From Myxococcota bacterium (GTDB lineage Bacteria; Myxococcota_A; Polyangia; Polyangiales; Houyiibacteriaceae), in assembly GCA_039030515.1 (NCBI GenBank), contig JBCCEA010000017.1:24579-88578 (forward strand): DNA of 64,000 nucleotides, in the 5' to 3' direction. Under the pieces are notes generated by a model. It ran no database searches. It was given only the letters and a program-made list of their open reading frames with translations, and was not told where the DNA came from. The position numbers and the translations under genes are program-made. Each line of letters begins with the position of its first letter. Position 1 is the first letter of the stretch. Below are positions 35,801 through 36,052 of the stretch, piece after piece.

Positions 35801-36052
35801 GTATTCGGCGCCAACGTCATGGTTCGCGACGCCCCTCGGTCCCGTTAGCGCTAAGGGCGTGCCTACCGATCGGGCTGACGACACTGAGGGTTTGAGCCCG
35901 CGGGCGCCTATTCCAAAAGGACCGACAGTCGCGGCAGGCGGAGCAAAAGCGGCTGCTCGAGGCAAGCGCGCGGCCCGACGAAGAGCGAGCAGCAGCAGGC
36001 AAACGAGCGAACATCTAAGAACGCTGGGCGCACGGGCTGCACGCCCCGTCAT
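32888..36052 (-). CDS. 1054-aa orphan with plastid-presequence-like N-terminus and a GSCQ-motif core domain
   Basis: Long ORF; leader MTGRAARAPSVLRCSLVCLLLLALRRAARLPRAAAFAPP; core LGEDVGSCQ...IKNSEGAVSARSVVRL...AEQIYY. Confidence 0.8.
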   Translation of the reverse strand: MTGRAARAPSVLRCSLVCLLLLALRRAARLPRAAAFAPPAATVGPFGIGARGLKPSVSSARSVGTPLALTGPRGVANHDVGAEYKSAADPAPYSSQLATRDPLYERLIAALREDSNRYFRGFGQEPRWVKERVAELTRLWLGTHGASPHPEMRPLHRLLEDLQRFNPREGSILSSTLHTLQLSIARGSLPEYRLYVMGLFVVVDGAFDHLAWFAEQRDQQGTRQQGIRAMTSALNRLRTKAGVRSMQREVLNSGSGITPARLAQIEARALEVLHQLHQLSGMAFREVERSPREPAEADRMRQQFAKALHLLIESTPTQGRADHIRAFQKLFSVAIRSEASPRFFSIIEEERQNTPAKLRYAIPFFYLLVPSFRCVLHRSGRLEGVDRMESDISSFIKRLAGMDRDGIELCRDLVKLLVEILVGSPSLEFSIARCATILGVMARESAREPARLRRMLTGLTVVLGQFRTPMQYGSEALLWEYLHGLSPEKLEEAGQLDRLLGLPSASDMDRQRFSAKLQNRFRRPSLPLRYYFQLLKLEESKLCSGDWPNLRWFREWLRHVLTDDVDAVRRHSPINRQHLSHFSEDLVDRWFGSNYSTADPDTMLMLGEDVGSCQAITDGSINQHLVGYLVSGSTRALVIKNSEGAVSARSVVRLVYMRMPQHGLEGIGGSSLSQGFAPAENPALGVEVPLMVAEQIYYGRGSCSPYVLDPAMEQLGRRLAQEVGVPLLWSRAPVTKRPVLTTLALTSSAKGVPVLHDGTEASTYVDGLHAHRSGQEEFVVASVSPQLAVQLAKRARQGSYSGSSMELLIRTYGTKAPESDAMMRADATPRSSNPRSRDDVRGRHDESGNAVTTPEVESLMHRLLDGPRFRTRWLKDLAFQLFLELPEHSEIAKGLKAIDNSMAAPMEGAPWDEQRGLQYQVWVSLQRSAIDAHLVPHKPETHRDFERLLLGAGRQMLARVDSDPRAAGLKPAPAHMLSSLRGFLESCESPGSFEASRAGASGSAKRIKALWDCVQDLLAFHDRLKEGTEDALSAALSSGRAGAYQPGMYVRLSE

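Follow-up and report, generated by a model that had tools for sequence, protein, structure and literature searches.

A GNAT-like-fold protein of a Myxococcota bacterium with algal relatives and an N-terminal leader resembling algal plastid presequences

Secretory (Sec) signal peptides of bacteria are built of n-, h- and c-regions and follow the A-x-A rule, and the bipartite plastid signals of algae are read co-translationally at the endoplasmic reticulum (ER). A bacterial protein could therefore use a bipartite signal only after reaching the ER lumen in some other way. Bipartite presequences of the ASAFAP type are described from diatoms, cryptophytes, haptophytes and dinoflagellates, and are scored by ASAFind (Gruber et al. 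2015, PMC4329603). Bacterial proteins with N-termini that resemble chloroplast transit peptides reportedly also include the Pseudomonas syringae type III effectors HopK1 and AvrRps4. Here, a leader with features of the ASAFAP type is described from a 64,000-nucleotide stretch of DNA (the window, numbered from its first letter) of a Myxococcota bacterium, where it makes up codons 1-78 (35819-36052) of an open reading frame (ORF) of 1054 amino acids. HopK1 and AvrRps4 are reported to lack an ER signal peptide and to be delivered by injection to the cytosol of primary-plastid plants, whereas the signal resembled here is of the complex-plastid type. A limited literature search on eukaryote-to-prokaryote transfer, algae and signal peptides found no bacterial gene with an ASAFAP-type leader, which is not proof that none is in print. 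Both the algal likeness of the leader and the algal kinship of the protein are evident, and the likeness is tentatively read as coincidental, in a translated bacterial export or anchor leader followed by a linker.

The window belongs to contig C17 of an assembly of 4.08 Mb (75 contigs, 85% complete, 57.5% GC), and is bacterial and densely coding (GatA/GatB, MurJ, Hsp33, ClpB, KatG and sigma-54 activators). The leader gene lies mid-contig between bacterial genes, and thus differs from ASAFAP presequences in not being encoded in an algal nucleus; a protein that clusters at 90% identity with YihA of the window carries the label Myxococcota bacterium. Its parts are as follows (a slash within a motif marks the candidate cleavage site).

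32888-36052, minus strand: whole ORF, 1054 amino acids, ATG at 36052, consisting of leader, helical region, GNAT-like domain and C-terminal extension
35948-36052, minus strand: residues 1-35, signal-peptide-like half, with n-region M1-R13 (+3), core C14-L24 and basic c-region R25-A35
35981-36013, minus strand: hydrophobic core CSLVCLLLLAL, residues 14-24, from hydropathy
35936-35956, minus strand: candidate cleavage motif AAA/FAPP, residues 33-39, ASAFind matrix score 8.16
35819-35947, minus strand: transit-peptide-like residues 36-78, acid-free, net positive and rich in Ala, Gly, Pro and Ser, from composition, score 5.16
34271-35818, minus strand: residues 79-594, mostly helical, aligning with the homolog P0002 and, starting near residue 230, also with the algal homologs, from hhalign and from model helices in 480-594
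33698-34270, minus strand: residues 595-785, conserved GNAT-like domain (MLMLGEDVGSC), from homologs and predicted structure
32888-33697, minus strand: residues 786-1054, C-terminal extension without counterpart in P0002 or the algal homologs, partly strain-hypervariable

The layout given in a preliminary description of this DNA (basic start, hydrophobic core, RAAA-FAPP with F36, no acidic residue before 79) is borne out by the translation of the ORF. The basic start carries R4, R7 and R13, the c-region R25-A35 has four Arg and ends in AAA, the residue at +1 is F36, and the first acidic residue of the whole ORF is D79. The core has a Kyte-Doolittle hydropathy of 3.05 over 10 residues and 3.44 over 8 residues. 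Residues 36-78 contain 4 Lys+Arg, 0 Asp+Glu, 7 Ser+Thr, 7 Ala, 6 Pro and 7 Gly, and the 78-residue leader as a whole has 16 Ala, 10 Arg, 8 Pro and 8 Gly.

For comparison with algal presequences the published ASAFind matrix (PMC4329603, Table S2; transit-peptide cut-off 2) was used alone, with core hydropathy as a proxy for the SignalP step that the published protocol includes. The F36 site has a cleavage-site score of 8.16 and a transit-peptide score of 5.16 over +1 to +20, and is the best site at positions 11-60, the next best being F46 with 5.23. In a crude genomic null set of 2752 ORFs taken at their longest-ORF starts, its cleavage score ranks 2nd, with null values close by (8.46, 7.99 and 7.97), so that 8.16 is high without being off the scale, as would be expected of a chance likeness. 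Of the 2752 bacterial N-termini, 1958 likewise exceed the transit-peptide cut-off at their own best site and have F, W, Y or L at +1 there, which means that a matrix score taken without the SignalP step says little, and F at +1 alone contributes 3.25, making the transit-peptide test weak. On bacterial proteins, the ASAFAP motif score alone is a weak discriminator.

Individual features of the leader differ in how rare they are in the genome. Of 438 signal-like N-termini, 11 have an A.AF motif after the hydrophobic core (e.g. ...NSAIA/FAQ and ...TATA/FAED), and several of these 11 are plain secretion signals; A-x-A/F alone is thus ordinary in this genome, again in favour of coincidence. A first Asp or Glu at residue 79 or later is found in only 4 of the 2752 ORFs, the other three looking by eye like multi-pass membrane proteins. 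In all six frames there are 23,393 A/F sites, 37 of which are acid- and stop-free from -35 to +43; two of these 37 have a core of at least 3.05, and only the F36 site also has an ASAFind score of at least 8, with thresholds that were set post hoc from the target leader itself. The check for similar leaders elsewhere in the genome that the preliminary description had proposed therefore returns the full combination once, at F36. At the DNA level the leader is single-copy, with no second match in its own genome, and on this ground a repeat element was rejected.

Like the ASAFAP presequences described in PMC4329603, the leader has a hydrophobic core, A-x-A/F-A-P with F at +1 and an acid-poor, net-positive, hydroxylated stretch, here residues 36-78. 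However, its core does not run near-directly into the cleavage site with hardly any basic residues, but is separated from AAA/F by the spacer RRAARLPR, which places three Arg in -10 to -1 and four in -11 to -1. Among 12 of the 166 diatom reference presequences (PMC4329603, Table S1), 11 have no basic residue in -10 to -1 and one has a single one, and their cleavage positions are 15-30, as compared with 36 in the leader. This spacer is one of the reasons why the leader is not classed as a bipartite presequence. Thus, the resemblance to an algal bipartite presequence put forward earlier holds at the motif level, where it is measurable, and gives way at the Arg-rich stretch before the cleavage site, which is unlike these diatom references.

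Compared with bacterial Sec/signal peptidase I signals, the leader is alike in its basic n-region, its 11-residue core (within the usual 7-15), the small residues at -3 and -1 (A33 and A35) and the lack of Pro at +1. Typical Sec signals have a c-region that is short and free of charge, and the mature protein does not begin with a strongly basic part; the leader, by contrast, has an 11-residue c-region with four Arg and then 43 acid-free residues. A Tat signal was rejected, as R25-R26 stand after the core and not before it. The lipobox pattern is [LVI][ASTVI][GAS]C, and a lipoprotein signal was likewise rejected, as C14 is preceded by VLR and C18 by SLV, neither with G, A or S at -1. The genome contains three Peptidase_S26 matches, two secretins, a type VI sheath gene and one FlhA; the first three of these, Peptidase_S26 standing for signal peptidase I, make export of the leader protein feasible.

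On the reading preferred here, which is held tentatively and at somewhat less than even probability, the leader would be the translated N-terminus of a protein of GNAT-like fold that a marine Myxococcota bacterium acquired horizontally. Its Leu-rich core of 11 residues, together with the basic start, would form a Sec-type export signal, which signal peptidase I would cleave after AAA35, or else an N-terminal membrane anchor. In either case the acid-free stretch 36-78 would be a flexible linker. The likeness to ASAFAP presequences would then not be inherited, since signal peptidase I and ER signal peptidase both favour A-x-A, and a GC-rich genome yields linkers rich in Ala, Arg, Pro and Gly.

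The protein carrying the leader has no match in a Pfam scan, and word-indexed homolog searches returned nothing beyond a near-identical copy and P0002. An exhaustive HMMER search of 1.84 billion representative proteins gave 47 matches at E <=0.001: P0001, a near-identical truncated copy of 617 amino acids; P0002, with 707 amino acids and E 1e-19, encoded on a 6.5-kb contig; and 45 weaker matches, all on target residues ~490-740. Named members are the haptophytes Prymnesium parvum (KAL1495571.1) and Haptolina brevifila (A0A7S2NIQ3), the ochrophytes Chattonella subsalsa (MMETSP transcripts), Discosporangium mesarthrocarpum (CAM9148932.1) and Phaeothamnion confervicola (CAN0429408.1), and the dinoflagellate Gymnodinium smaydae. 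Alignment of target plus P0002 against 14 algal-family sequences with hhalign (probability 99.9, E 4e-33) spans target residues 230-785, and homology is therefore full-length and extends beyond one motif. The algal homologs share with the target a colinear helical region and the GNAT-like domain, at ~22% identity overall and 29-40% in the domain, with the target having 270 extra C-terminal residues. A metagenome scan added 10 distant loci of 29-38% identity and none closer. Among Atlas neighbours of the protein there are unnamed clusters and a weak PcfJ lead at 0.85.

Invariant residues of the domain are G607, C613, L625, G644 and R649, the family Cys lying in GEDxGSC. Residues 480-800 were modelled with AlphaFold from 45 sequences, with a pLDDT (predicted local distance difference test) of 78.6 and a pTM (predicted template modelling score) of 0.80, and the C-terminal half of the model matches only structures of GNAT (Gcn5-related N-acetyltransferase) type in Foldseek (best E 0.018, probability up to 0.99). 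The best 50 VIA rows are all GNAT, although with Z of only 5.0-6.4 over 99-151 aligned residues. In a Pfam search at E <=0.1 across 45 members the domain is not covered and no GNAT family is matched, and an acetyl-CoA-binding motif was not found, by eye inspection only. In relation to the GNAT superfamily, the domain thus combines a predicted GNAT-like fold, at modest scores, with the lack of a Pfam GNAT match and an invariant Cys in GEDxGSC. DUF4116 repeats are found in 4 of the 45 members, outside the domain; in these the domain follows the repeats, and P0030, P0031, P0032 and P0036 belong to a second clade of the LLLxGTExxGSCQ type from metagenome and metagenome-assembled genome (MAG) contigs. 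This suggests a modular family of unassigned function, with DUF4116 and a GNAT-like domain. An unannotated GNAT-like family is thereby defined that is spread over red-plastid algae, a second clade of metagenome contigs and one myxobacterium; this definition, as well as the weakness of the ASAFAP score, stands whichever reading of the leader is right.

Variation between strains differs along the gene. Single-nucleotide polymorphisms (SNPs) were taken from a list of 40 out of 210, and none of those listed lies in the leader. Within the gene body (residues 190-810), 9 of the 12 listed SNPs are at the third codon position (2/1/9 over positions 1/2/3), which shows the body to be under purifying selection. 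In the C-terminal extension, one variant contig has 50 differences and 11 gaps in 467 nt (33146-33615, residues ~813-969), and the listed SNPs are distributed 12/6/10 over codon positions 1/2/3.

The leaders of the algal relatives are the context that makes the finding worth attention. Judged by hydropathy and by eye, a hydrophobic core precedes F, W or Y by a few residues at most, with a basic hydroxylated stretch thereafter, in 5 of the 7 complete algal N-termini, e.g. ...CIQKLQS/FQVHANIKGQRTATL in Chattonella and ...LTRVSC/WRITTLRSPKGARS in Discosporangium. A hydrophobic core is seen in 0 to 1 of 10 proteins of the other clade and is lacking in P0002. Complete N-termini at metagenome loci are signal-like in L008 and weak in L004. 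The L008 homolog (6033-8457 of an 8.6-kb contig, 65% GC) is of the algal type and consists of one unbroken frame of 808 codons whose start, MLALTLLATPALRL..., is signal-like. Introns thus seem to be lacking in at least some algal members, and with an uninterrupted frame of this kind transfer at the DNA level would be feasible.

Outside the algae and metagenomes the family is hardly found. A family profile found 0 matches in 400 other genomes of the same phylum, 40 close relatives gave one weak match of 85 residues only, and scans of prokaryote species representatives recovered no relative. This makes the gene either an import or an orphan in this lineage. In codon usage it does not stand out from its genome (30th percentile of 1711 ORFs; GC at third codon positions 0.656). 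The nearest genomes are 59-74% identical in KatG and MtnA. Delimitation of an island by synteny was dropped, as KatG and MtnA are on separate contigs in G002, the one relative compared.

A tree was generated from 201 columns of 44 domain sequences, omitting P0013, P0017 and P0047, which are too short, and the redundant cluster mates P0001, P0004, P0006, P0007, P0009, P0050, P0051 and P0052. One clade consists of 20 rows from metagenome and MAG contigs, some with DUF4116. The other contains the dinoflagellate protein, the target + P0002 pair (support 91/82) and a 21-row clade (98/93), all named members of which are algal. In the best tree, the target does not fall within the algal clade, and its terminal branch is 1.44 changes per column long. 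A constrained tree with the target inside the algal clade, beside the haptophyte group, is worse by 5.6 log-likelihood units but is not rejected by the approximately unbiased (AU) test (p-AU 0.098). On this tree the transfer between alga and bacterium could have gone in either direction.

A long branch has consequences for the leader. A relic leader without use would be expected to decay over so much change; given how far the conserved domain has diverged, the likeness would be a coincidence, or be maintained by selection, or stem from a recent capture from an unsampled donor. Coincidence in an export or anchor leader agrees with the ordinary codon usage, the selection acting on the gene body and the position outside the algal clade, and also with the start context of the called ATG and the in-frame leader indels described below. 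Several points weigh against it. With an 11-residue c-region bearing four Arg, and flanks of +3 and +4, the leader would serve poorly as a Sec signal or as an anchor. Its full set of features occurs nowhere else in the six frames of the genome, and the nearest named relatives are proteins of red-plastid algae, 5 of 7 complete ones with a core and then an aromatic residue, which would be an improbable coincidence for a bacterial gene chosen for its ASAFAP-like leader. A GNAT-type enzyme outside the cytoplasm would be without acetyl-CoA. Lastly, a position nested in the algal clade is not rejected.

Next in standing is descent from an alga, which we consider possible though doubtful. In this case the gene, or its 5' end, would have been captured from an alga with a red complex plastid, and the leader would be a hitch-hiker, at most doubling as a Sec signal. 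The full-length homology to the red-plastid algal family is in its favour, as are the leaders of the algal homologs against the near-lack of a core in the other clade, the near-lack of family matches in the phylum genomes, close relatives and prokaryote representatives scanned, the ASAFind scores, the unbroken frame of L008 and the tolerated nested position. However, the gene falls outside the algal clade in the best tree, domain identity is 29-40% with no close donor among the 1.84 billion representative proteins, and codon usage has the character of the genome. An unused presequence should not have lasted over such divergence, and the three Arg in -10 to -1 exceed anything in the 12 diatom references. 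In addition, the closest homolog P0002 has no hydrophobic part, and local alignment of the leader with its N-terminus is not significant (p 0.09-0.5). The earlier suggestion of a leader captured from an algal gene is therefore carried by the family homology and the algal leaders, and opposed by the tree, the Arg stretch, P0002 and the codon usage. If the leader did come with the gene from an alga, it would be a rare documented eukaryote-to-bacterium transfer in which an organelle-targeting presequence can still be read.

Translation of the leader from the ATG at 36052 is judged to be quite probable from the sequence. Between the upstream stop and codon 30 there is no ATG, GTG or TTG other than the called ATG. 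Its start context scores -0.37, at the 21st percentile of 472 trusted starts, as compared with -1.49 for TTG30 and -1.94 for GTG57; TTG30, GTG57 and ATG152 are at the 2nd-4th percentile. A core of at least 3.05 is present in 1 of 203 non-coding in-frame extensions and in 2.5% of ORF N-termini, and a core together with no acidic residues arises in 0.007% of shuffles. A variant contig, which comes from a further run of that marine study, lacks 9 nt of the leader at 35926 and 3 nt at 35988, the latter taking out one Leu, and both indels keep the frame; they are weak evidence, however, and in this respect do less for an export or anchor leader than they might, since the sequence around them is repeat-like, with a CTG run and GCGGC repeats.

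The alternative, that the start was called too far upstream and the leader is 5' untranslated region read in frame, with the real start at GTG57, TTG111 or ATG152, is accordingly unlikely, but has evidence of its own. P0002 begins at about target residue 50, with 165 residues ahead of its first block of strong similarity where the target has 231, log-odds of leader codons 2-56 are undecided between coding and non-coding (likelihood ratio 0.76), windowed codon scores are ~0 up to about codon 66, and the Ala-, Arg-, Pro- and Gly-rich composition is what GC-rich non-coding DNA gives. No Shine-Dalgarno-like motif stands ahead of the ATG, although the signal is weak genome-wide (29% at most-upstream starts against 14.5% at random positions). 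Longest-ORF starts are also sometimes too long in this genome: the KatG ORF (27653-30031, minus strand, GTG start, 792 amino acids) is matched by its relatives only from query residue 29-90 on, so its longest-ORF start is probably too far upstream, and start calls can evidently over-extend here. Against a downstream start, the contexts of GTG57, TTG30 and ATG152 are poorer, the core is rare in non-coding extensions and shuffles, the variant indels preserve the frame, and the full pattern, found once in six frames, falls exactly at an ATG. P0001, from a second assembly, is called with the same start and is not independent. Of the cautions attached to the preliminary description, both the odd Sec signal, as the export or anchor leader preferred here, and the mis-called start, at the lower probability just given, are thus retained.

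A working plastid address is very improbable: in this scheme the protein would be exported by Sec, signal peptidase I would cut after AAA35 and expose F36 with its acid-free basic arm, and, once the bacterium or its vesicles had reached an algal ER lumen, the arm would mimic a plastid-bound protein and be taken by the algal import system into the plastid, where acetyl-CoA is present. Motif and transit-peptide scores above the ASAFind cut-off, selection as a reason for the persistence of the leader on its long branch, algal homologs that appear to be sent to the same kind of compartment and the signal peptidase I, secretins and type VI sheath gene would agree with it, but no way is known in which a free-living bacterium with flagella (one FlhA, 4.1 Mb genome) could enter an algal ER lumen, any host is hypothetical, the basic c-region is unlike the 12 reference presequences, and no other protein of the genome has such a leader. 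The bacterial effector addressed to a host plastid that was proposed earlier consequently finds no support in this analysis. If true, the protein would be the first effector of a bacterium directed to a complex plastid, in a family that algae themselves appear to send there, and a functional leader would raise the question of whether bacteria target complex plastids with effectors. What weight remains beyond the export or anchor leader, algal descent, a downstream start and a plastid address goes to other explanations.

Upstream of the leader gene are two further features.

36053-36467, no strand: divergent intergenic region, with an AT-rich stretch at ~36260-36420
36468-40982, plus strand: divergent neighbour, an orphan ORF of 1504 amino acids

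A promoter scan of the intergenic region (36053-36467) gave no promoter-like match. For the neighbour ORF there is no Pfam match, and a search among 5.8 billion proteins gave its own copy only. It is called with 1403 amino acids in the other assembly, and one variant contig leaves out 146 nt at 36860-37007, a length not divisible by three; its true start may be further downstream. Its 5' part has a 21-nt direct repeat in two copies of 86% identity (36527-36568). Elsewhere in the window, an ORF at 1859-2497 carries tandem repeats, 24-nt x6 (98% matches) at 2345-2487 and 48-nt x2.3 at 2233-2342; one frame of 2233-2487 gives repeated ...VLPRAAAL..., and the search with the leader DNA gave no match there. 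Beyond the orphan pair, at 41150-42208 on the minus strand, a 352-amino-acid ORF is weakly matched by a Pfam GNAT model. With a codon score at the 4th percentile of ORFs of at least 300 amino acids, one of the lowest in the genome, it may be foreign or mis-called.

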